Positions 2,101 through 33,845 of a DNA stretch of 35,014 nt are shown in pieces. The position numbers and the translations under genes are program-made. Where the stretch lies: contig JANMVQ010000124.1 in the NCBI GenBank assembly GCA_031392845.1, positions 1 through 35,014 on the forward strand, written 5' to 3'. This stretch comes from Chloroflexota bacterium (GTDB lineage: Bacteria > Chloroflexota > Anaerolineae > J036 > Brachytrichaceae). Position 1 is the first letter of the stretch. Each line of letters opens with the position of its first letter. Under the pieces are notes generated by a model. That model searched no databases, was not told the origin of the DNA, and was given only the letters and a program-made list of their open reading frames with translations.

Positions 2101-3255
2101 ATGAATAACAGCGAAATCCAGGGCAACAGTGGCGCAAATACGAATAGTGGCAGTCCAGCACGCAAGTTGCGCATCTTGCATGTTACAGCCCGCTACTACC
2201 CCTTAATGGGTGGGATTGAGACCCATGTCTATGAGGTCGCACGTCGCATGGCCCGTATGGGTCACGAGGTGACGGTGATGACGACCGATCCAGGTGGCAA
2301 ATGGGCTGCGCAAGAGATGATTGACGGCGTGACCGTCCGCCGCGCACGTGCCTATCCGGAGAAAAAGGACTATTATTTCGCTCCGGATATTTACCGCTGG
2401 ATTTCACGCAATGAAGGCAATTGGGATGTGATGCATGTGCAGGGCTATCACACCTTGGTGCCGCCGCTCGCCATCACTGCTGCTCGCAAGGCTGGCATTC
2501 CCTTTACGCTCACTTTTCATAGTGGTGGTAACTCCTCGGCATTGCGCAACGCCATCCGTCACACCCAGTGGCAAATGCTGCGACCCTTTCTCAGCAAGGC
2601 CAATTTGCTGTGCGGCGTGTCGCACTTCGAGGCCAATCAGTTCCGCCAAGCATTGAACTTGCCCTTGTCGATGTTTCGGGTCATTCCAAATGGCTCGAAC
2701 CTGCCCAAACTAGATGTGCAGGTCTCGCCCAACCAGAACAAGATTATTTCGGTGGGACGCTTGGAGAAATATAAGGGCCACCAGCGCGTGATCGATGCGC
2801 TGCCATTTGTGCAAAAGCAATACCCAGACGTGCAGCTTGATATTTTGGGCGTCGGACCCTATGAGCGCGAATTGCGTGAGCGTGCCCAGTCATTGGGTCT
2901 GAATAACATCGTAGAGATCAAATCGGTCAATCCGACTGATCGAGGGGGGATGGCAGCGGCTTTGGCCAGCGCCGGCCTCATCACCTTAATGAGCGATTAC
3001 GAGGCACATCCCATTGCAGTTATGGAGGCGCTCAGTCTGCATCGACCAGTGTTGGTCACCCACACCTCAGGCTTGGGTGAGCTGGCCGATCGCGGTCTGG
3101 TGCAGTCGGTGCCGTTGAGCAGCAGCCCTGTTCAGGTGGCCGATGCCATCTGCGAGCAATTGCGCCACCCGTACATTCCGAAGAATGTCGATCTGCCGAC
3201 TTGGGATGGCTGCACCAACCAACTCGTCTCTTTGTATTCGGAAATTTCAAAATAA
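2101..3255 (+). CDS. GT4-family (GT-B fold) glycosyltransferase
   Basis: The N-terminus LRILHVTARYYPLMGGIETHV and the C-terminal EAHPIAVMEAL region are typical of GT4 retaining transferases. AGAGGAG lies upstream of the ATG. Confidence 0.85.
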   Translation: MNNSEIQGNSGANTNSGSPARKLRILHVTARYYPLMGGIETHVYEVARRMARMGHEVTVMTTDPGGKWAAQEMIDGVTVRRARAYPEKKDYYFAPDIYRWISRNEGNWDVMHVQGYHTLVPPLAITAARKAGIPFTLTFHSGGNSSALRNAIRHTQWQMLRPFLSKANLLCGVSHFEANQFRQALNLPLSMFRVIPNGSNLPKLDVQVSPNQNKIISVGRLEKYKGHQRVIDALPFVQKQYPDVQLDILGVGPYERELRERAQSLGLNNIVEIKSVNPTDRGGMAAALASAGLITLMSDYEAHPIAVMEALSLHRPVLVTHTSGLGELADRGLVQSVPLSSSPVQVADAICEQLRHPYIPKNVDLPTWDGCTNQLVSLYSEISK

Positions 3256-8922: not shown

Positions 8923-8965
8923 CATGACTCGTGGCTCATGACTCACGAGTCATGAGTCAAGACTC
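8923..8965. repeat. Palindromic element: 11-bp inverted repeat CATGACTCGTG/CACGAGTCATG enclosing the 20-bp palindrome TCATGACTCACGAGTCATGA, followed by GAGTCAAGACTC
   Basis: Read directly from the sequence. It lies 9-50 nt upstream of the start of the 1353-aa secreted protein gene. Confidence 0.8.
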
Positions 8966-8973
8966 CTGAAACT

Positions 8974-16120: not shown

Positions 16121-18739
16121 TCACTCCTGCCGCACCGCGCTGGAAATGGCGATTTTGCCTAGGCGCAGCATGGGGTATATCCCGGCCAGCAACGCCGAGA
16201 TGAGCGCTACCAGCATGGCTTGGGCAAAAGTTTGCCACTCTAGGTTCAGCCGAATTGTCCAGCCAAATGAGCGCAAATTGATGATGTAGACCAGAATCAC
16301 GGCCAGCAACCAGCCGGTGGGCATCGAGAATAGCCCGGCGGTGCCGCCCATCAACCCAGTTTCAAGCAAGGTCATGCGCCAGAGTTGGCGCAGGGTCATG
16401 CCGTTGGCGCGCAACATGCCCAGCTCGCGGGTGCGCTCGATCTGCAACGCCATCAGCGCGCTGAGCACGCCGATAAAGGCGACAACTGTGGCCAGTAAAT
16501 TCAACGCGCCGGTGATGGCAAAGGTGCGATCAAACACCTGCAGTGCAGCGCTGCGCAAATCCCCGTTGGCGTTGATCAATAGGTTTTTGCCGCTAAATTG
16601 CTTGCGCAGATCGGCGACGTTTACCGCGTTAGGCGTATTTAGATAGAGCGCAACCTGCGACACCTGTCGGTCGTTGAAATAGCGCTCATAGTTGTCGCGC
16701 CGCATCAAAATCAAGCCTTGGTCCGAGGCATAGTCGTAATAGACCGCCTGTACGGTGAAGGTGCGTTCGCCCTGATCTGTCCGGATCGTGATGCGATTAT
16801 TTTGTTGGGTGATATCGTGTCTATTGGCATACGGCTCGGACACCCACACCTCGTCTTGGCCGCGCATGGCTGCCCAAGCCCCATTTGGATCGCGCGTAGT
16901 CCATACAAAGGTCTTGGCCGGGCGCTCACGGTTGGAATCGATGGTGAGAAGGCGGGCGGTTGCGGAGTTAGTAAGGTTCGGAAGGTTCTGAACGTTAGGA
17001 ACCTTACCAACTTTCTCAACATTAGGAACTTCCCCGACTTCAACAGGCAACGAACGTAACAAGGTGACTTCGCTGACGTCGGGAAGGGCGCGGAATTGGG
17101 CGATGGTTTGTGGATCGATGGTGGCAACGTTGTCGTTGACGCCAGACCTAATTGGGGCGATATAGATATCGGCCAGCAACGAGGCCTCTAGCCAGTTTTC
17201 GACGGTGTTTCTAAAGCTGCCAATCATGCTTTGCAGGCCAATGATTACGCTGACCGCGATCATGAGCGAGGCAATCGCAATGCCGGTGCGCGAGATGGAA
17301 TTGACGACCGAGCGGGTGGACATACGCCCGATGACGCCGACGAAGCGATTCATGATCGGGGTGAGGGCATCCATCAAGTAGACAGTGCCCAATGGCGAAA
17401 TAATGGCCAGCCCAACGATGACACCAAAGATGCCACCCAGATTGACCACAAGTTGTTTGGTGAGCAGCAACATGCCTCCGCCAATCGCAAACATGACGAT
17501 GCCAACTAGCGCAATCTTGGGCAGAATTTTGCGCACGCGTTGCTCCACAGCGCTGCGTTTCAGAGCAGTAACCGGTGGGATGCTGGTCGCCTCATACGCG
17601 GGCGCCAGCGCCGCCAACAGCGCCGCGCCTACGCCCAGCACAAAGCCTTTGATCAGAGTGAATGGCGCAACTTCAATGTCTTGCACATTGACCACGTAAT
17701 ACAAATCGTTAATCGTCTGGGTGACCAAGCGCACCGAACCGCGCCCCAGCAATAGTCCCAGCCCAACTCCCAACACCCCGCCGATAGCGGCCAGAATCGC
17801 AGTCTCGGTCAAAATCAGTTGAAAGATTTCGCGTTGGGTCACGCCCAGACAGCGCAGCGTGCCGATCATGGGGCGGCGCTGCACCACCGAAAACATGATG
17901 GTGTTGTAGATTAGAAACATGCCCACAACCAGCGCCAACAGGCTCAGCGCGGTGAGATTTAGCTGAAACGCATCGGTCAGGCTTTCGACACTTTGGCTGC
18001 GCGCTTGGGGCTTGATGATTTGCGCACCCAGAGGCAACGTTTGTTGGATGCGTGCCAGCATGTCACGGCCTGCAGTGGTGCGCTCATCGGCGATCAGGTC
18101 GATATGGCTGAGCTGGCCGCGCATCTGGAAGAGCTGTTGCGCGGCAGCCACGTCCATGATGGCCAGACCGTCAAGCGCCCGACGGCTGTTGGCGTCGGCG
18201 GGTTGCAGGATGCCGATGATGCGCACGGTTTGGGTGCGCTCACCGACGCGTAGGGTGAATTTGCTACCGGGTTTGAGTTGGTAGCGCTCGGCAGTGGTTG
18301 CGCCAATCAAAACAGCGTCTGGCTGGGTCAAAAATTGGGTGAGATCGACGTTGCCGGCTGCTGCGACGTTGCCTTCGCCTAAATAGTTACGAAAAGGAAA
18401 GTCCGCGAAGACATCGATGCCCAAAATCTGTAACGGCTGCTGATCAAGTTCGAGTGCAGTGGCATACGCAGCAATGATTGGGGCAGCGTTTGTAATGCCT
18501 AGATCGACCTTGATTTGGCGATAAACCGTATCGCTGATCGTGGCGCCACTGCCGACGATTTGATGGGTGGCTCGCCCGGCCACTGTCTCGGTGCTTAGAT
18601 TAAACGCCCGCGCTGCGCTGACGTTGGCCAGATCGATGGCGATAACGACTGCCACGCCGAGCGCTACGCCAATGATGCACAAAATCGACTGCAAAGGACG
18701 CCGCAACAGATAGCGCAACCCCGTTTTTAACAGACTCAT
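16121..18739 (-). CDS. ABC transporter permease with duplicated FtsX-like 4-TM domains (MacB/YbbP-like)
   Basis: 872 aa. Two FtsX-type TM bundles are each preceded by a large extracytoplasmic domain. A low-complexity insert, EVGEVPNVEKVGKVPNVQNLPNLTNS, is encoded by the repeat at 16966-17046. Confidence 0.85.
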   Translation of the reverse strand: MSLLKTGLRYLLRRPLQSILCIIGVALGVAVVIAIDLANVSAARAFNLSTETVAGRATHQIVGSGATISDTVYRQIKVDLGITNAAPIIAAYATALELDQQPLQILGIDVFADFPFRNYLGEGNVAAAGNVDLTQFLTQPDAVLIGATTAERYQLKPGSKFTLRVGERTQTVRIIGILQPADANSRRALDGLAIMDVAAAQQLFQMRGQLSHIDLIADERTTAGRDMLARIQQTLPLGAQIIKPQARSQSVESLTDAFQLNLTALSLLALVVGMFLIYNTIMFSVVQRRPMIGTLRCLGVTQREIFQLILTETAILAAIGGVLGVGLGLLLGRGSVRLVTQTINDLYYVVNVQDIEVAPFTLIKGFVLGVGAALLAALAPAYEATSIPPVTALKRSAVEQRVRKILPKIALVGIVMFAIGGGMLLLTKQLVVNLGGIFGVIVGLAIISPLGTVYLMDALTPIMNRFVGVIGRMSTRSVVNSISRTGIAIASLMIAVSVIIGLQSMIGSFRNTVENWLEASLLADIYIAPIRSGVNDNVATIDPQTIAQFRALPDVSEVTLLRSLPVEVGEVPNVEKVGKVPNVQNLPNLTNSATARLLTIDSNRERPAKTFVWTTRDPNGAWAAMRGQDEVWVSEPYANRHDITQQNNRITIRTDQGERTFTVQAVYYDYASDQGLILMRRDNYERYFNDRQVSQVALYLNTPNAVNVADLRKQFSGKNLLINANGDLRSAALQVFDRTFAITGALNLLATVVAFIGVLSALMALQIERTRELGMLRANGMTLRQLWRMTLLETGLMGGTAGLFSMPTGWLLAVILVYIINLRSFGWTIRLNLEWQTFAQAMLVALISALLAGIYPMLRLGKIAISSAVRQE
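16966..17046. repeat. 9-bp-periodic palindromic repeat element inserted in-frame in the FtsX permease gene
   Basis: AAGGTTCGG AAGGTTCTG AACGTTAGG AACCTTACC AACTTTCTC AACATTAGG AACTTCCCC GACTTCAAC. It encodes ...VPNVEKVGKVPNVQNLPNLTNS... Confidence 0.7.
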
Positions 18740-18840
18740 ATGTAGTTGAGGTTAATGCGCATACATGAGCGCGGTGTGAATCGGTAACGATAACCTGCAA
18801 TTCCAAAATCAAATTTTATGTCTCACTCCAACCCATTTTA

Positions 18841-18935
18841 GACGCGGATTTTTCGGATTCACGCGGATAGAAAAGAAATCTTTAATCCGCGTTGATCCGT
18901 TTAATCCGCGTTCTGTTCTGTTCTGTTCTATGTTG
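18841..18935. repeat. Structured repeat element, copy 1: long imperfect hairpin built from four ACGCGGAT/ATCCGCGT motifs plus a (TCTGT)4 pyrimidine tail
   Basis: Left arm GACGCGGATTTTTCGGATTCACGCGGAT and right arm ATCCGCGTTGATCCGTTTAATCCGCGT are reverse complements with about 4 mismatches, separated by a 16-nt loop. TCTGTTCTGTTCTGTTCTATG follows. Confidence 0.7.
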
Positions 18936-18951
18936 TGTTGATATCAGAACG

Positions 18952-19830
18952 TCATTGCACGAGTAGCGCAAACTGGGCCAATGTCGTGTCGCCGTGGATG
19001 CGCACCCGATCCCAGGTGAACGCACCACTCAGGCGGTGGGTTTTGCCATAGGCAGTGGTGACTGCGCCGAGCATGTATTCAGACTTTAACACCCGAATTA
19101 CATCGTCGTCGTAGCGTCCGAACGGATAGCAGAAGAAGCGTGGGCGTTTGCCGGTGTAGGCCTCGATCGCCTCCAGTGGGCCGAGCGTTTCCCAGATCAG
19201 CTTGGGCAAATCGCGGTTGCGCAGGTCTATGTGAGTGCGTGAATGCGATTCGATGTTCATGCCTGCACGCGATATCTCCTGAATCTGGTCCCAATGCATG
19301 TAATCCGGATTTGCGCTGCTGGCGAAGTCAGTCACCACAAAAAATGTGCCTACCATGCCATATTTGCGCAACAATGGAAAGGCGTGCTCATAAGCGTCGC
19401 GGTGGCCATCATCAAAGGTCAGAATAATGGACTTGGGTGGCAAAGGTGCACCACTGCTCAGATTGGCGTGAAGGTCATACAAACTGATGGTCTTGTAGCC
19501 GTTATCTGAGAGATACTTCAACTGCGCCTCAAAATTTTCGGGTGAGACGGATAAATCACGCCGGATACGGTCAGCATTGGCTGGGGGTGTCGAGATATAG
19601 TGATACATCAGGATCGGCACTTGTGCGATTCGTAGCGGATCTGCCGTAGGCGTGAGGGGTACGGGTGTGGGTAGCGGACTGGCGGTGGGGGTGGGGCGAG
19701 CAGCTTGCGCTCGGCACGTCACCCCAGCGATCAAAACAATACTGCACAAACAAGTGATACGCACAAAACGTGCAAACTGGGTCACAATTTTGCGGAAATG
19801 GGGTTCGGAGTTGTATTCAGAAACGGGCAT
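18952..19830 (-). CDS. Polysaccharide deacetylase, CE4 / NodB-homology domain, secreted
   Basis: LTFDDGHRDAYE and ESHSRTHIDL are NodB motifs. The N-terminus is hydrophobic with a Pro/Thr-rich linker. The start is uncertain; an internal GTG is an alternative. Confidence 0.8.
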   Translation of the reverse strand: MPVSEYNSEPHFRKIVTQFARFVRITCLCSIVLIAGVTCRAQAARPTPTASPLPTPVPLTPTADPLRIAQVPILMYHYISTPPANADRIRRDLSVSPENFEAQLKYLSDNGYKTISLYDLHANLSSGAPLPPKSIILTFDDGHRDAYEHAFPLLRKYGMVGTFFVVTDFASSANPDYMHWDQIQEISRAGMNIESHSRTHIDLRNRDLPKLIWETLGPLEAIEAYTGKRPRFFCYPFGRYDDDVIRVLKSEYMLGAVTTAYGKTHRLSGAFTWDRVRIHGDTTLAQFALLVQ

Positions 19831-22657: not shown

Positions 22658-22676
22658 GTCATGACTCACGAGTCAT
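22658..22676. repeat. Second copy of the TCATGACTCACGAGTCAT palindrome (18 of 20 positions) with a GACTCAAGACT motif about 90 nt downstream
   Basis: GTCATGACTCACGAGTCAT lies 16 nt after the lipoprotein stop, between convergent genes. TGACTCAAGACTTA is at 22751-22764. Confidence 0.75.
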
Positions 22677-22797
22677 AAATCATAAGTCCGGCGAACGATA
22701 CGTTAAGACGAAATGAACAAGTGTATTGAACGTATCTCTTTCCGGACTTTTGACTCAAGACTTATGGCAATGAATCGTGACTAATGACTCTTGATCC

Positions 22798-24305: not shown

Positions 24306-25976
24306 ATGGCTGACGGACAAGTTATTTACTCAATGATGAAGGTGGGCAAAGTGGTTCCACCGAATAAGCAGATTCTGCGTGATATTACGCTGGGATTTTA
24401 TTACGGCGCCAAGATTGGTGTGTTGGGTTTGAACGGTGCAGGCAAGAGCACCTTGCTCAAAATCATGGCTGGGATCGATGACAATCATCTGGGCGACACC
24501 ACGCTCAGCAAGGGCTATGTACGGGGCATGCTGACGCAAGAACCTGCGCTGGACGATACCAAAACGGTCAAAGAAATTGTGCAAGAAGGTGTGCAACCAC
24601 TGGTCGATCTGCAAAATAAATATGATGAGATCAGCGCCAAGTTTGCCGAGCCGGATGCCGACTTTGACAAGCTGATGGAAGAGCAAGCCAAAGTGCAAGA
24701 AGAGATGGATAAGCACGACGTATGGACGTTGGACAGCCGCCTTGATCTGGCATTGGATGCGCTGCGCTGCCCGCCAGGCGATGCACTGGTGCAGCCTCTC
24801 TCTGGTGGAGAGCGCCGCCGGGTGGCGTTGTGCCGTCTGCTGTTGGCCGAGCCGGATATTTTGCTACTCGACGAGCCAACCAACCACTTGGACGCTGAAA
24901 GTGTGGCCTGGTTGGAACAGCATTTGCGCAACTACAAAGGCACCGTCATTGCGGTGACCCACGACCGCTACTTTCTGGACAACGTGGCGGGCTGGATTTT
25001 AGAGCTGGATCGTGGCTTTGGCATTCCTTATAAAGGCAATTACTCCGGCTGGCTGTCGCAAAAATCTGAGCGACTGCGCCAAGAAGAGAAGTCCGATGAC
25101 AAGCGTCAAAAGACACTGGATCGCGAACTGGAATGGATTCGTATGTCCCCCAAAGCGCGCCAGTCCAAGGGCAAGGCGCGCATTACCTCTTACGAAAAGC
25201 TGCTAGACCAAGAAGGTGAGAAGCGCCGTGAAGAACTGGAGATTTATATTCCGCCCGGCCCGCGCTTGGGCGATGTGGTGCTCGAAGCAAAAAATATCAG
25301 CAAAGGCTATGATGATCACCTGCTCTACGAGAACCTGAGCTTCACCGTGCCGCCCGGGGCGATTGTCGGTATCATCGGCCCCAACGGTGTGGGCAAGACC
25401 ACGCTGTTCCGAATGATCACCGGTCAGGAAAAGCCCGACACCGGCACATTCACGGTGGGCTCAACAGTCAAGCTGGGCTATGCCGATCAGAGCCGTACCC
25501 TCGACCCCGGCAAAAACGTATGGGAAGAAATTACCGGTGGCGATGACTTCATCACCATGGGTCAACGCCGCATGAATAGCCGCGCTTATGTGGCCAGCTT
25601 CAACTTTCTGGGTACGGATCAGCAGCAGAAAGTAGGTACGCTCTCAGGTGGGCAGCGCAACCGCGTGCATTTGGCCAAGACCTTACGCGAAGAGGCCAAC
25701 GTGTTGCTGTTGGACGAGCCGACTAATGACATCGATATCAACACCATGCGTGCGCTAGAAGAAGCGATTACTGAATTTGCCGGTACCGCCATGATCATCA
25801 GCCACGACCGTTGGTTTTTGGATCGTGTCTGTACCCACACATTGGCTTTCGAAGAAGATGGCAATGTGCGTTGGTTTGTCGGCACGGTCAGCGAATACGA
25901 AGAAGATCGCCGCAAGCGTCTGGGCAAGGACGCTGAGACCCCGCACCGGATGGTGCATCGTAAACTACAGAGATAG
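24306..25976 (+). CDS. ettA: Energy-dependent translational throttle protein EttA (ABC-F ATPase)
   Basis: The N-terminus VIYSMMKVGKVVPPNKQILRDITLGFYYGAKIGVLGLNGAGKSTLLKIMAGID is near-identical in pattern to E. coli EttA/YjjK. Two ABC cassettes are joined by a linker, with no TM domain. Confidence 0.9.
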   Translation: MADGQVIYSMMKVGKVVPPNKQILRDITLGFYYGAKIGVLGLNGAGKSTLLKIMAGIDDNHLGDTTLSKGYVRGMLTQEPALDDTKTVKEIVQEGVQPLVDLQNKYDEISAKFAEPDADFDKLMEEQAKVQEEMDKHDVWTLDSRLDLALDALRCPPGDALVQPLSGGERRRVALCRLLLAEPDILLLDEPTNHLDAESVAWLEQHLRNYKGTVIAVTHDRYFLDNVAGWILELDRGFGIPYKGNYSGWLSQKSERLRQEEKSDDKRQKTLDRELEWIRMSPKARQSKGKARITSYEKLLDQEGEKRREELEIYIPPGPRLGDVVLEAKNISKGYDDHLLYENLSFTVPPGAIVGIIGPNGVGKTTLFRMITGQEKPDTGTFTVGSTVKLGYADQSRTLDPGKNVWEEITGGDDFITMGQRRMNSRAYVASFNFLGTDQQQKVGTLSGGQRNRVHLAKTLREEANVLLLDEPTNDIDINTMRALEEAITEFAGTAMIISHDRWFLDRVCTHTLAFEEDGNVRWFVGTVSEYEEDRRKRLGKDAETPHRMVHRKLQR

Positions 25977-25985
25977 TAGAAAGTT

Positions 25986-26042
25986 AAAAGTGCAAAGTTG
26001 AAAGTGAGTGGCTTGTTTTTAACTTTCAACTTTGCACTTTTT
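25986..26042 (+). terminator. Hairpin with a 20-bp perfect AT-rich stem and T-run downstream of ettA (terminator or attenuator)
   Basis: AAAAGTGCAAAGTTGAAAGT - 16-nt loop - ACTTTCAACTTTGCACTTTT, followed by TT. The next ATG is 12 nt downstream. Confidence 0.55.
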
Positions 26043-26053
26043 ACTCATGAGAA

Positions 26054-26894: not shown

Positions 26895-29800
26895 TCAATC
26901 TTGCAAAATCGGCTGTAACCAACGCTCCGCTTCTTGCAGCGTCCAGCCTTTACGTTGTGAATAGTCTTTTAACTGATCACGCCCGATCTTGCCCACGCCA
27001 AAGTAGCGGGCTTGGGGATGGGCGAAGTACCAGCCACTGACGGACGCAGCAGGCAACATGGCGCAGCTCTCGGTCAACGTCATACCGATCTTTTCTTGCG
27101 CTTGTAACAGATCAAAGATCGTGCGCTTTTCAGTGTGATCTGGGCAGGCCGGGTAGCCCGGTGCTGGCCGAATGCCGCGATATTTCTCGGTGATTAAATC
27201 TGCGCTGCTTAGTTGCTCAGTCAACCCATAGCTCATGTCGTCGCGGGCGCGTTTGTGCAGATATTCAGCTCCGGCCTCGGCCAAGCGATCTGCTAGTGCC
27301 TCAACAAGGATCGCGCTGTAATCATCCCCAGCCTGTTTGTAACGCTCGACCATTTCCTTGGCCCCGTGAATGCCTACCGCAAACGCCCCGATGTAATCGA
27401 CAGTGCCGCTGTCTTTGGGGGCAATAAAATCCGCCAATGCCAGGTTCACTCTTACGGTTTGAAGGTTTGAAGGGTTTGGAAGGTTCGAAGGTTCAGAAAG
27501 TTTAGAACGTTCGGAACCTTCTGAACTTGACGAACCTTCCCAACCCCTCTTATTCATCTGTTGCCGCAGCGTATGGAAAGTGGCGCGCACTTGACTGCGG
27601 CTTTCATCGGCGTATACCTCGATATCGTCGCCGACGCTGTTGGCGGGGTAGAAACCGTAGATGGCTTTGGCGGCGAGTGTATTTGTCCCATTTGCTGATT
27701 GAGGGTTCGCAGTTTGACCCGGTTTGTGGGCGGCGACATGCGCGGTGGCGTTGGCTTGCACAAGGCGTTGCAGCATCGTCTGCGCATCCGCAAATAGCGC
27801 GCGTGCCTGTTCACCCACGACTGCATCATCAAGAATCTTCGGATAGCCACCCGCCAATTCCCACGCCTGAAAGAAGGGCGTCCAATCGATATAGTCGATC
27901 AGATCGCGTAAGGGCAAATCCTCGATCACCCGTGCGCCGACGAAGGATGGCTCGATAGCGTTCTCGCCACTCGATTCATCTGCGCTTAGGGCGTTAAAGC
28001 GGCGCTGACGGGCTTGCTCCAAACTTAGGAGCGGCTTGCGATCCGCGCGCTTGGCGAATTGCTCACGCAGATCGGATTGTTCGAGCGCATTCTTCTTGAC
28101 GAAGTCATCGTGCATTGCTTGGCTGAGCAAGCTGCCCACCACGCCAACCGCTCGGCTGGCATCCAGCACGTGCACCACTGGCTGCATGTAATTCGGCGCA
28201 ATCTTCAGCGCGGTATGAGCCTTGCTTGTTGTTGCGCCGCCAATCAGCAAGGGGATATTCATGCCTTCGCGGGCCATCTCTTTGGCCATGTGCGCCATCT
28301 CGTCCAGCGAGGGAGTGATCAGTCCACTCAAGCCAATCATGTCCGCACCTAACTCTTTGGCGGCTTTCAATATTTTGTCTGCTGGCACCATCACACCCAG
28401 ATCGATCACCTCGTAGTTATTGCAGCCCAGTACCACCCCGACGATGTTTTTGCCAATGTCATGCACATCGCCTTTGACCGTGGCGAGGACGATTTTGCCG
28501 GCGGAAGAAGACTGCTGGACGGCGGACGGCTCCAAGCTGGCCGCATCGCGCTCGGCCTGCATAAACGGTTCCAGCACCGCCACTGCGCGCTTCATCACCC
28601 GAGCGCTCTTGACCACCTGCGGCAAAAACATCTTGCCCGCGCCAAACAGATCGCCAACCACGCTCATGCCTTTCATCAGCGGCCCTTCGATTACATGCAA
28701 TGGACGACCATATTTCTGGCGCGCTTCTTCGACATCGACATCGATGAAATCGGTAATGCCTTTGACCAGCGCATGCTCCAACCTTTCCTCGATTGAGTTA
28801 TTCCGCCATTGTGCTACTTCTCTCTCGGTCAACCGTCGTCCGTTGTCCGTCGTCGGCTTAATCTCTTCCGCATAAGCCACCAACCGCTCGGTCGCATCCG
28901 GTCGCCGGTTCAACAGCACATCTTCTACACGTGTCAGTAGCGTTTTGTCGATCTCTTCGTAAACTTCCAGTTGCCCGGCATTCACAATGCCCATGTCTAG
29001 CCCGGCTCGAATGGCGTGATAGAGAAACGCACTGTGCATGGCCTCGCGCACCGGGTTGTTGCCACGAAACGAAAACGAGATGTTGCTCACCCCACCGCTG
29101 ACCTTTGCCCCCGGCAAATTTTGTTTGATCCAGCGGGTGGCCTCGATAAAGTTCAACGCATAGTTGTTGTGCTCTTCGATGCCGGTGCCCACGGTCAGAA
29201 TATTCGGGTCGAAGATGATGTCTTCCGGCGCAAACCCCACGTCGCTTACTAAAATATCATAGGCGCGTTTGCAGATGGCGATCTTGCGCTCGTAGGTGTC
29301 GGCCTGCCCGCTCTCGTCGAATGCCATCACTACTGTGCCTGCCCCGTGCCGCTTGATGATGGTGGCTTGCTCTTTGAACTTGGCCTCACCCTCTTTCAAG
29401 CTAATTGAATTGACGATGCACTTGCCCTGCACGCACTTCAGCCCAGCCTCGATCACCCCCCAGCGACTGCTGTCGATCATGACCGGCACTTTGGCGATAT
29501 CCGGCTCACTCATCGCCAAGTTCATGAAATGGGTCATGGCTTGTTCGCCGTCAATCAAACCTTCGTCAAAGTTCACATCGATAATATTGGCCCCATTCTC
29601 AATCTGTTGCTTTGCCACCCGCAGAGCTTCTTCGTACTGGCCCTCTTTAATCAGCTTGGCAAACCGGGGTGAGCCAGTCACGTTGGTGCGTTCGCCGATC
29701 ATCATGAATTGGGTGGCAGAGGGTTCGGAAGGTTTATAAGGTTGGGAAAGTTCAGAAGGTTCAGAACGTTGTGAACCTTCAGAACCTTCTAAACTTTCGG

Positions 29801-30884
29801 AACTTTCCGAACCGATCGCCAATCGCTCGAGCCCACTAAAGTAAGTCTTATGCACCGGCTTGGCTGGGGTGCGCACGCGGCCGGCATGCTGCACGACGTC
29901 GGCCAATTGGCTGATGTGTTCTGGGCCGGTGCCACAACAACCGCCCACAATATTGACCCAGCCATTTTGGGCAAACTCGCCAACCTGATCAGCAAACTGA
30001 TCGGGGGTCATATCGTAGCCGCCAAAGGCATTTGGCAGCCCGGCGTTGGGGTAACACGAGGTGAACACCTGACTGAGCTGGTTCATCTCCTCCATATACG
30101 GGCGCATCTCGTTTGGCCCCAGCGCGCAATTAATGCCCATGCTGATGAGCGGAGCGCGATGGATCGAGGCCCAATACGCATCCACGGTTTGGCCGCTCAG
30201 GGTGCGTCCGCTCTGGTCGGTGATGGTCACACTGGCCATCACTGGAACCCGCCGTGCGCCATCGGCAAACAGCTTCTGAATTGCGTAGAGCGCCGCCTTT
30301 TGATTGAGCGTGTCAAATGTGGTCTCGGGCAACAAGATATCGACGCCGCCCTCCAGCAATGCCGCGGCCTGGTCGTAATAGGCTTGCATAACCTGATCGA
30401 ATGTCACCGCTCGAAAGCTGGGATCGTTCACATTGGGGCTGAGCGAGAGGGTGCGGTTCATCGGCCCCAATGCGCCGGCCACGTAGCGCGGCTTGCGCGG
30501 GTCGCGTTGAGTGAAATCATCGGCGGCCTTGCGTGCGATCTGCGCTGCCCTGATGTTCATCTCGCGGATCAGCGCCGGGTCGGTCATATCAAAATCGGCC
30601 ATACTGATGGCCTGCGCATTGAACGTGTTAGTCTCGAGGATGTCCGCTCCCGCCTCGAGATACTCGCGATGAATCGCCTCAATCATGTCGGGCTGCACCA
30701 GATTCAAGGTCTCGTTATTGTTTTTAAGATCAATATGCCAGTTCGCAAAGCGCTCGCCCCGATAAGTCGCCTCATCCGGTTTATAGCGTTGGATCATGGT
30801 GCCCATTGCCCCATCCAGAATCAAGATGCGCTGCTTGAGTAGATCCGTAATGGGTGGCTTGTTTGGTTGGGTAAATTCGCTCAT
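26895..30884 (-). CDS. metH: Cobalamin-dependent methionine synthase MetH with two low-complexity inter-domain insertions
   Basis: Full five-module architecture: Hcy-binding (ILDGAMGT...GGCCGT), pterin-binding, B12-binding ([10 protein letters not shown]), and the AdoMet-activation domain. 1329 aa compared with ~1230 aa for canonical MetH. The extra residues are encoded by the repeats at 27448-27540 and 29715-29815. Confidence 0.95.
27448..27540. repeat. 9-bp-periodic palindromic repeat element inserted in-frame in metH (linker between the B12-binding and AdoMet-activation domains)
   Basis: GGTTTGAA GGTTTGAA GGGTTTGGAA GGTTCGAA GGTTCAGAAA GTTTAGAAC GTTCGGAAC CTTCTGAAC TTGACGAAC CTTCC. It encodes [26 protein letters not shown]. 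Confidence 0.75.
29715..29815. repeat. 9-bp-periodic palindromic repeat element inserted in-frame in metH (linker between the Hcy-binding and pterin-binding domains)
   Basis: GGGTTCGGAA GGTTTATAA GGTTGGGAAA GTTCAGAA GGTTCAGAAC GTTGTGAAC CTTCAGAAC CTTCTAAAC TTTCGGAAC TTTCCGAAC. It encodes [32 protein letters not shown]. Confidence 0.75.
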
Positions 30885-31022
30885 TGCTATAGCCCTTCAG
30901 GTTGGAAAGTAGCAATATCACCCTCCTCGATCTCATAGACCGGGGAGGGCGATTCCAGAATCAAACCTGAACATCTATATATGCAATGATACCCAGAGTT
31001 ATGAGAGGAAAATGACTTTGTT

Positions 31023-33704: not shown

Positions 33705-33845
33705 GTTAGCAATCGCTGAAAAACAGTTACTACTCAGGCCATTTCTGATTCTTTTCCGCAAATCACGCGAATCAGCGCGAAAAAGATTAGCGAATATTCG
33801 TGTGATTCGCGGATTTCAATAGGTCTGAGTAGTTACGAAAAATAG

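Follow-up and report, generated by a model that had tools for sequence, protein, structure and literature searches.

A palindromic nine-nucleotide repeat is read in two frames within an ABC-transporter permease gene and metH of a Chloroflexota bacterium

We analysed a stretch of 35,014 nucleotides (the window; GC content approximately 0.54) from a Chloroflexota bacterium, contig JANMVQ010000124.1 of assembly GCA_031392845.1, in which two unrelated genes on the minus strand carry copies of the same short repeat. The first host gene (16121..18739) encodes an ABC-transporter permease of 872 amino acids (aa) built from two MacB_PCD + FtsX halves, and the second (26895..30884) encodes the cobalamin-dependent methionine synthase MetH, of 1329 aa. 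The window holds exactly three copies of this one repeat family, each on the minus strand and in frame: copy A (16964..17041) in the permease gene, copy B (27456..27545) in a loop within the reactivation domain of MetH, and copy C (29718..29813) in the linker between the homocysteine and folate domains of MetH. The copies are 78-96 nt long and account for 26-32 residues, each 9-nt unit specifying three residues. They differ in unit counts and periods and have no fixed length. An earlier note, made from the sequence alone, had recognised the same repeat in the permease gene and in metH, read in a different frame. The units that it quoted (AAGGTTCGG AAGGTTCTG AACGTTAGG AACCTTACC) lie on the plus strand at 16973-17008, and the permease gene, on the minus strand, reads EVGEVPNVEKVGKVPNVQNLPNLTNS across copy A; the quoted translations are correct, and only the boundaries move, from 16966-17046 to 16964-17041.

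Within the window, Tandem Repeats Finder placed period-9 arrays solely at 16967-17040, 27456-27526 and 29717-29813. The pattern GAAGGTTCNGAAGGTTC, with up to 3 mismatches, gave 20 matches against 0.27 expected, all of them within these three loci, and a pattern for the palindromic centre gave 18 matches against 0.03 expected. When copies A, B and C were compared by BLAST with the window, each matched the other two only (85-88% over 30-42 nt). The outer units of copy B have an 8-nt period (GGTTTGAA). A further 9-nt coding repeat lies near 27695 (metH aa ~1061; ACAAACAGC, TNS units) and has one unit more or fewer in a related strain (L139).

Each copy has the architecture of an imperfect palindrome, (GAAGGTTCN)n - GAACGTT - (NGAACCTTC)n, whose arms are 71-83% complementary overall. 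Copy C is the most perfect palindrome of the three, with arms of 46 nt that lack a spacer and are 78% complementary; the arms of copy B are 34 nt long and those of copy A 23 nt. The palindromic core of copy A (16966..17012) comprises arms at 16966-16988 and 16990-17012, which are 83% complementary around the GAACGTT centre. Since the element is its own reverse complement, its orientation is irrelevant; the GG-arm invariably precedes the CC-arm, so that EGS always stands ahead of EPS. As single-stranded DNA, the copies fold with z scores of -6.1 (C), -4.5 (B) and -1.5 (A) against dinucleotide shuffles, and of -8.0, -6.4 and -2.0, respectively, against mononucleotide shuffles. A scan of the window with Rfam models and for tRNA genes gave no match.

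Alignment of the copies showed 78-88% nucleotide identity (gapped local alignments: A-C 53/68, A-B 53/72, B-C 69/86), with the peptides of copies A and C essentially unrelated. In copy C the units read GAA GGT TCN and GAA CCT TCN, giving EGS and EPS, and in copy A they read (G)AAG GTT CNG and AAC CTT CNG, giving KVx and NLx. Copy B begins in the frame of copy C and shifts to that of copy A past one 8-nt unit. The G of GAAxxTT is therefore at codon position 3 in copy A, at position 1 in copy C, and at position 1 and then 3 in copy B; the remaining third frame of the units tends to hold TGA or TAA. The best 30-nt stretch between any two copies contains 25-26 matches, compared with at most 22-25 for back-translated peptides, and when the same peptides were resampled with the codon usage of the window, 0/500 resamplings attained the observed nucleotide match for every pair. 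These data support the repeat as a DNA-level feature rather than a shared protein domain, since two frames are in use for the same nucleotides, and both occur within copy B. The earlier note had argued as much from the differing peptides, expecting nucleotide identity to exceed peptide identity and proposing that the similarity be no higher than that of low-complexity coding sequence of matching composition if the argument were wrong; the pairwise identities and the resampling bear its expectation out.

The intragenic copies have lengths that are multiples of 3, are stop-free in the frame used, and lie in surface loops or interdomain linkers. Length differences between strains within genes are likewise all multiples of 3, and intergenic length differences (14, 14, 77, 111 and 123 nt) are not confined to them. 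A stop-containing heptamer family, GAGTCAT, is found only in intergenic DNA in the loci examined; the numbers are small, and its confinement is consistent with a filter for coding compatibility. Translation of the inserts is deduced from their intact frames. Bypass by the ribosome or removal of the insert from the RNA is unlikely, given that every intragenic copy and length variant is in frame and free of stops.

The insert of copy A occupies approximately aa 567-592, inside the second MacB-type periplasmic core domain of the permease (aa 485-714; 30.9 bits, cut-off 27). A sequence search of the PDB covered just the transmembrane part of the protein and a structure prediction was therefore used. 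In the AlphaFold model (mean pLDDT 74.7), residues 570-591 are modelled as coil, with pLDDT below 50 at 577-590, between strands at 555-569 and 592-601. Copy A is thus predicted to occupy a low-confidence loop of variable length that lies between two beta strands of this domain, in keeping with the earlier assignment to the large extracytoplasmic loop of the second half. Among 120 permease homologs the insert is present in only the four at ≥83% identity (P0001-P0004), at one common site. Approximately 115 orthologs at ≤71% identity are without it and have short unrelated loops instead; where named, these insert-free homologs come from Ca. Roseilinea, Thermoflexales or Chloroflexi. The four relatives differ in unit number and keep the layout of a GTT-arm and an AAC-arm. 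In the DNA of three relatives (L127, L124 and L123), left-arm xxx-GTT-xxx units and right-arm AAC-xTT-xxx units surround AACGTT. Permease alleles within the 90% cluster are 872, 875 and 878 aa long and differ by one or two NLx units.

Hairpin z scores of the permease copies are -2.0 in the window, -2.0 in L127, -0.7 in L124 and +1.1 in L123. The hairpins of these relatives have thus largely decayed. Placed beside copies C (-8.0) and B (-6.4), the values suggest that hairpin strength declines with inferred age. Copy A would be the oldest and is the most decayed copy, and copy C is probably the youngest.

In MetH, alignment with the human enzyme (9ssp) gave matched blocks at 11-359, 391-1113 and 1149-1327, and the inserts of copies C and B fall exactly in the gaps 359|391 and 1113|1149. 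Both placements agree with the permissive loop regions proposed in the earlier note. MetH proteins of the host clade are 1244-1351 aa long, as against ~1230 elsewhere, with variable inserts at no fewer than six linker or loop sites. One of these, the linker between the folate and cap domains, holds in the window a heptamer remnant at 28833..28856 on the minus strand (GACGACG/GACAACG; PTTDNGRR), of a family distinct from the 9-mers; two relatives (L129 and L139) carry there instead a 60-nt AGATTGG/CCAATCT heptamer palindrome, RLETGDSAKSPSANLQS. Directly upstream of the metH start codon lies a separate 87-88-nt segment (30890-30977) whose ends are inverted and which contains a GC hairpin; L139-L142 lack it, and it may take the place of the ribosome-binding region.

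The syntenic strain L129 is 94.5% identical to the window over 12.4 kb. We tabulated its differences of at least 9 nt, and the only one outside short-repeat cassettes is a 14-nt change in a plain hairpin loop at ~31868, present in the window and absent from L129. In L129 each arm of copy B is longer by one 9-nt unit. The two strains have identical flanks at site C right up to the cassette, where the 9-mer palindrome of the window gives way in L129 to a heptamer palindrome, (GACGACG)n...(TCGTCAA)n. At the folate/cap linker the window has the GACGACG remnant and L129 the AGATTGG.../...CCAATCT palindrome, and at the B12 linker L129 has 60 nt in addition to the window, which has no insert. Two intergenic differences run in opposite directions: a 123-nt palindrome with heptamer arms (22668-22790) is absent from L129, and a 77-nt (ACAGAAT)n...(ATTCTGT)n palindrome of L129 is absent from the window.

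In strain-pair alignments totalling ~39 kb, all indels of at least 9 nt lie inside such elements, save the one 14-nt difference in the plain hairpin loop. Against L140 and L141 (98.3-98.4% identity, ~22 kb in total), the sole indel of at least 3 nt is a 14-nt gain of two heptamers at the palindrome ending at 22790. Copy C is present in L135, L136, L139 and L140, and is identical across the independent assemblies L135, L136 and L139; the recurrence of the same alleles in independent assemblies led us to reject an assembly artefact. Strain L139 (protein P0267) is a mosaic, with a copy C like that of the window, a 682 site like that of L129, and a B12-linker insert of its own. Palindromy, variation by 9-nt units, the exchange of copy C in L129 and the existence of several families in the lineage are features beyond those of the earlier note.

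Other elements of the window vary between the same strains. The arms of the 22668-22790 palindrome are GAGTCAT-like heptamer arrays, the empty L129 site reads GAGTCATGACT, and the GAGTCAT-like family is also palindromic at 8923-8968. A 111-nt insertion at 33726-33836, resembling a miniature transposable element with inverted repeats (MITE), has perfect 12-bp terminal inverted repeats, GTTACTACTCAG...CTGAGTAGTTAC. On either side of it stand GAAAAACA and GAAAAATA, probably an 8-bp target duplication, and L140, L141 and L142 lack the insertion.

A fourth site of the 9-mer family is found in a MetH that is 75% identical to that of the window (P0124, contig L128, GCA_043748055.1). Its B12 linker, which is empty in the window, contains GAAAGTTTGAAGGTTGGAAAGTTGGAAGGTTTG ... 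CAAACCAACCTTCAAACCTTCAAACCTTCAAACCC, with GAAGGTT/AACCTTC arms and an 8-nt period that cycles through all three frames. This copy folds with a z score of -4.6 and shares 28/30 nt with part of copy B; L130 carries a decayed version of it.

The lineage carries several cassette families, with units of 7-9 nt, in metH linkers, in the gene for leucyl-tRNA synthetase (LeuRS) and in intergenic DNA. LeuRS has a strain-variable in-frame insert (L139 ~3040-3110, RGTTDPSTPSAGQADLQTTD, versus SPTTADRQTTTD in L140), and a 38-nt segment lying within GACGACG heptamers is 35/38 identical between the L139 LeuRS insert and the metH B12-linker insert of L129 (3455-3530). Different relatives carry CCAATCT heptamers (peptide SPISNLQ), at two sites of metH. 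Sites C and B of metH in Ca. Roseilinea sp. AP024676.1 (L143) both hold AATTGAA/TTCAATT palindromes (aa 355-380 and 1114-1141; peptides KLKIEN...SQFSILNS; z -5.6 at site B), so that the presence of one family at two sites of a single gene recurs in another lineage.

Wider searches returned no further family members. A JGI metagenome scan with a strict 21-nt centre motif, which fits two of the three window copies, found none, its one locus being a terminator hairpin of an AT-rich genome; a viral scan with the centre motif also found none. A contig scan with a pattern of 14 specified bases, AAGGTTCNGAAGGTT, gave chance matches in unrelated taxa among the matches listed. The copy C peptide had 0 phmmer matches among 1.8 billion representatives, and an idealised (EGS)6-ERS-(EPS)7 query had eight weak ones, to short low-complexity proteins only. 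Separately, Dialister contigs from metagenome-assembled genomes (L017, L026 and L105) contain, several times per locus, (AAGGTTCTN)3-4 followed by a conserved ~45-nt loop and (NAGAACCTT)3. Their unit is similar to that of the present repeat, and the taxon and context are unrelated.

These data allow us to propose how the repeat came to lie in the permease gene. On balance, we read copy A (16964-17041) as one member of a small, dispersed family of hairpin-forming DNA cassettes, with selection filtering both frame and position. The family is placed at the DNA level at no fewer than four unrelated sites, namely the permease loop, two metH sites and the B12 linker of the 75% ortholog, and its copies are translated in whichever frame the host site dictates. 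Between strains, a resident cassette grows or shrinks by whole 9-nt units; the hairpin decays in old copies, and close strains differ by replacement of one cassette with another and by presence or absence. As to mechanism, we tentatively favour a process in which hairpin-stimulated breakage, or template-switching during replication, would copy sequence from a hairpin cassette close by into a different fragile site. We prefer this to the less probable alternative of insertion catalysed by a transposase, on the grounds of apparently low copy number, ragged ends, the lack of a target duplication, turnover at the same site, and the occupation of several sites per gene. The encoded peptide would most likely be a tolerated flexible spacer without a function of its own. 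A broader claim, which we regard as possible and put forward with slightly more reserve than the breakage mechanism, is that this Chloroflexota lineage (Ca. Roseilinea/Thermoflexales relatives) harbours palindromic microsatellite cassettes that are very small, encode protein and form a class not described before. Their several families, with units of 7-9 nt, would colonise the same interdomain linkers and loops of essential enzymes (MetH, LeuRS and an ABC permease) as well as intergenic DNA, displacing one another there. No dedicated transposase would be needed for their spread, which would proceed through breakage at hairpins and templated copying.

Several observations weigh against this interpretation. 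No target-site duplication and no conserved termini were seen at any copy, and the Pfam annotation of the window region includes no transposase-like gene; the "insertion" of the earlier note stands as an insert at the DNA level, with transposition as a hypothetical route. For target duplications, copy C was compared with the L129 allele, where none is visible; that site holds another cassette rather than being empty, and copies A and B have no sufficiently close empty site for such a comparison. Copy C is 80-88% identical to copy B and so was not recently copied from it, and its source is unseen. Approximately 135 kb of related loci contained no copies beyond the orthologous sites, and the term dispersed family thus draws on three window copies and four sites in all. 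The proposed route from site to site draws on these few copies.

The main rival of the breakage mechanism is hairpin-specific, REPIN-like single-strand transposition, in which a non-autonomous MITE- or REPIN-like hairpin is mobilised in trans by a transposase, for example of the IS200/IS605 type or a REP-associated tyrosine transposase (RAYT), the in-frame copies being survivors as in Rickettsia palindromic elements (RPEs). Such transposases recognise hairpins and leave no target duplication, which suits the hairpin structure of the cassette; the unrelated host genes, the presence or absence between strains and the precedents of REPINs and RPEs (PMC3116915, PMC10969869) also speak for it, as does the occurrence in the same genome of a classical MITE (33726-33836, 12-bp terminal inverted repeats and a likely 8-bp target duplication, absent from L140-L142). 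However, the cassettes have neither conserved termini nor a fixed length, varying from 78 to 96 nt with varied unit counts and periods. Inspection of the copies revealed no GTAG/CGTC tag, the Pfam labels of the window region include no transposase, the family looks low-copy, and several families with arbitrary units coexist. We therefore consider this explanation unlikely, although it is the strongest of the alternatives.

Less likely again is an independent origin of each array in situ, by local slippage and intra-strand template-switching at a fragile linker, with the likeness between sites reflecting convergence on stop-free, quasi-palindromic units that encode hydrophilic residues. Unit number, and possibly symmetric arm length, do change in place, and many distinct unit sequences occur across sites. 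The 22668-22790 palindrome, moreover, occupies a position at which the empty allele has GAGTCATGACT, itself a short palindrome that could have served as its seed. Convergence would nevertheless have to yield 78-88% identity over 30-70 nt, with the same order of GG-arm and then CC-arm and the same GAACGTT centre, a similarity far above the codon-resampling null. It would also have to account for the non-periodic 38-nt segment that is 92% identical between LeuRS and metH inserts.

We consider it improbable that the cassettes are maintained for a selected nucleic-acid structure, such as a stem in the mRNA that would make ribosomes pause at domain boundaries and so help folding, or an array of sites for a DNA-binding protein. 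The inserts lie at domain boundaries of MetH and, in the permease domain, between beta strands, and the young copies fold very stably; both observations would fit such a role. Against this, relatives of the permease keep the insert though the hairpin is lost (z -0.7 and +1.1), most orthologs have empty sites, close strains have unrelated cassettes or none at the same site, and no Rfam family was matched. Finally, a protein-level module, that is a flexible linker or low-complexity domain selected for its amino acids with the nucleotide likeness as a by-product, is excluded in our view by the frame analysis and is the least credible explanation, since, for all that the peptides are hydrophilic, rich in Ser, Glu, Pro and Asn and located in linkers, copies A and C share nucleotides and not peptide, copy B uses two frames, the nucleotide similarity beats all 500 codon resamplings, and the insert peptide has no protein homologs among the 1.8 billion representatives.

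Among known systems, the closest analogue is the RPEs, palindromic repeats found in frame within unrelated metabolic genes (Ogata et al. 2000, 2002, summarised in PMC10969869). RPEs, too, are dispersed palindromes that lie in frame in unrelated conserved genes, at positions compatible with the fold, and that have been read as selfish DNA filtered by selection. They differ in being ~100-150 bp long, with no short tandem units, one conserved peptide per family and hosts that are obligate intracellular alphaproteobacteria, whereas the cassettes are 78-96 nt long, have units of 8-9 nt for which two or three frames are used, vary between strains in unit number and belong to free-living Chloroflexota. 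The cassette thus shares with RPEs the palindromic hairpin and the in-frame, permissive sites, and not the length or the single conserved peptide. Sequence homology with RPE-1 to RPE-10 is unlikely, and the architecture described here sets the cassette apart from them.

Other small elements resemble it in fewer respects. Repetitive extragenic palindromic (REP) sequences and REPINs with their RAYT (PMC3116915, PMC3733652) are likewise short dispersed hairpins, in several families per genome; they lack target duplications, of which none is visible for the cassette. Those elements are, however, extragenic, 20-40 bp long, tagged with GTAG/CGTC, high-copy and RAYT-linked, and none of these features was seen for the cassette, all of whose copies are intragenic, with no tag at their ends and no RAYT-like gene in the window. 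MITEs fused in frame, such as QMITE1/2 of Coxiella (PMC5896051; reviewed in PMC10969869), are also small non-autonomous inverted-repeat DNAs that add residues to open reading frames (ORFs). A MITE has terminal inverted repeats, shared with an autonomous insertion sequence, around an unrelated interior, and direct-repeat target duplications; by contrast, the cassette is palindromic throughout and periodic, shows no visible duplication and no common termini or length, and has no transposase in the window region. Palindromic amphipathic repeat coding elements (PARCELs; PMC2996958) share with it intragenic tandem repeats, dyad-symmetric coding DNA and copy-number variation. PARCEL units, which spread horizontally, span 25 residues (75 nt), give rise to amphipathic domains and fill a large part of ORFs whose function is unknown, whereas the cassette has 3-residue units and forms one small insert in housekeeping enzymes, which places it outside that class. 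As in an ordinary coding tandem repeat, the units run head to tail and copy number is polymorphic (period 9; 872/875/878 aa; +9 nt per arm), yet the four sites, two frames and inverted arrangement do not fit a single-locus origin defined by peptide. Cyanobacteria reportedly contain short tandemly repeated repetitive heptamers, with dispersed repeats of 21-27 nt nested in the heptamer arrays. This Chloroflexota lineage too has heptamer arrays with an embedded dispersed segment of ~38 nt; the cyanobacterial repeats, compared by description only, belong to another phylum, lie mostly between genes and are not known as in-frame palindromic cassettes of conserved enzymes. A literature search returned no account of such elements in Chloroflexota.

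Protein-coding palindromes have so far been treated as a peculiarity of Rickettsia, and the same outcome, in which selfish or mutational DNA persists in frame within essential genes, is seen here in free-living, uncultured Chloroflexota, with elements that are far smaller, built from 7-9-nt units, read in several frames and turned over between strains of 94-99% identity. The locus therefore offers a natural system for studying how hairpin elements originate and move, at which positions conserved enzymes tolerate insertions and how linker lengths diversify; the proposed class of microsatellite cassettes, if it is real, would be a self-renewing source of linker-length variation. In practical terms, such elements interrupt metagenomic assemblies and make proteins look more divergent than they are.

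Two other differences concern the DNA outside the host genes. An intergenic hairpin at 25975-26045, with an arm of 14-nt period (AAAGTTAAAAGTGC), corresponds to 7835-7960 of L142, where its loop appears reverse-complemented and ~110 nt adjoining are lost, through either a real flip or an assembly artefact. Upstream of the permease gene, 18787-18967 of the window corresponds to 21932-23034 of L140, where, between the permease gene and that of the deacetylase, an additional 1.1 kb carries a PIN_3/HicB-like toxin-antitoxin pair; in the window, a hairpin made of ACGCGGAT-like units is found here, at 18842-18911.

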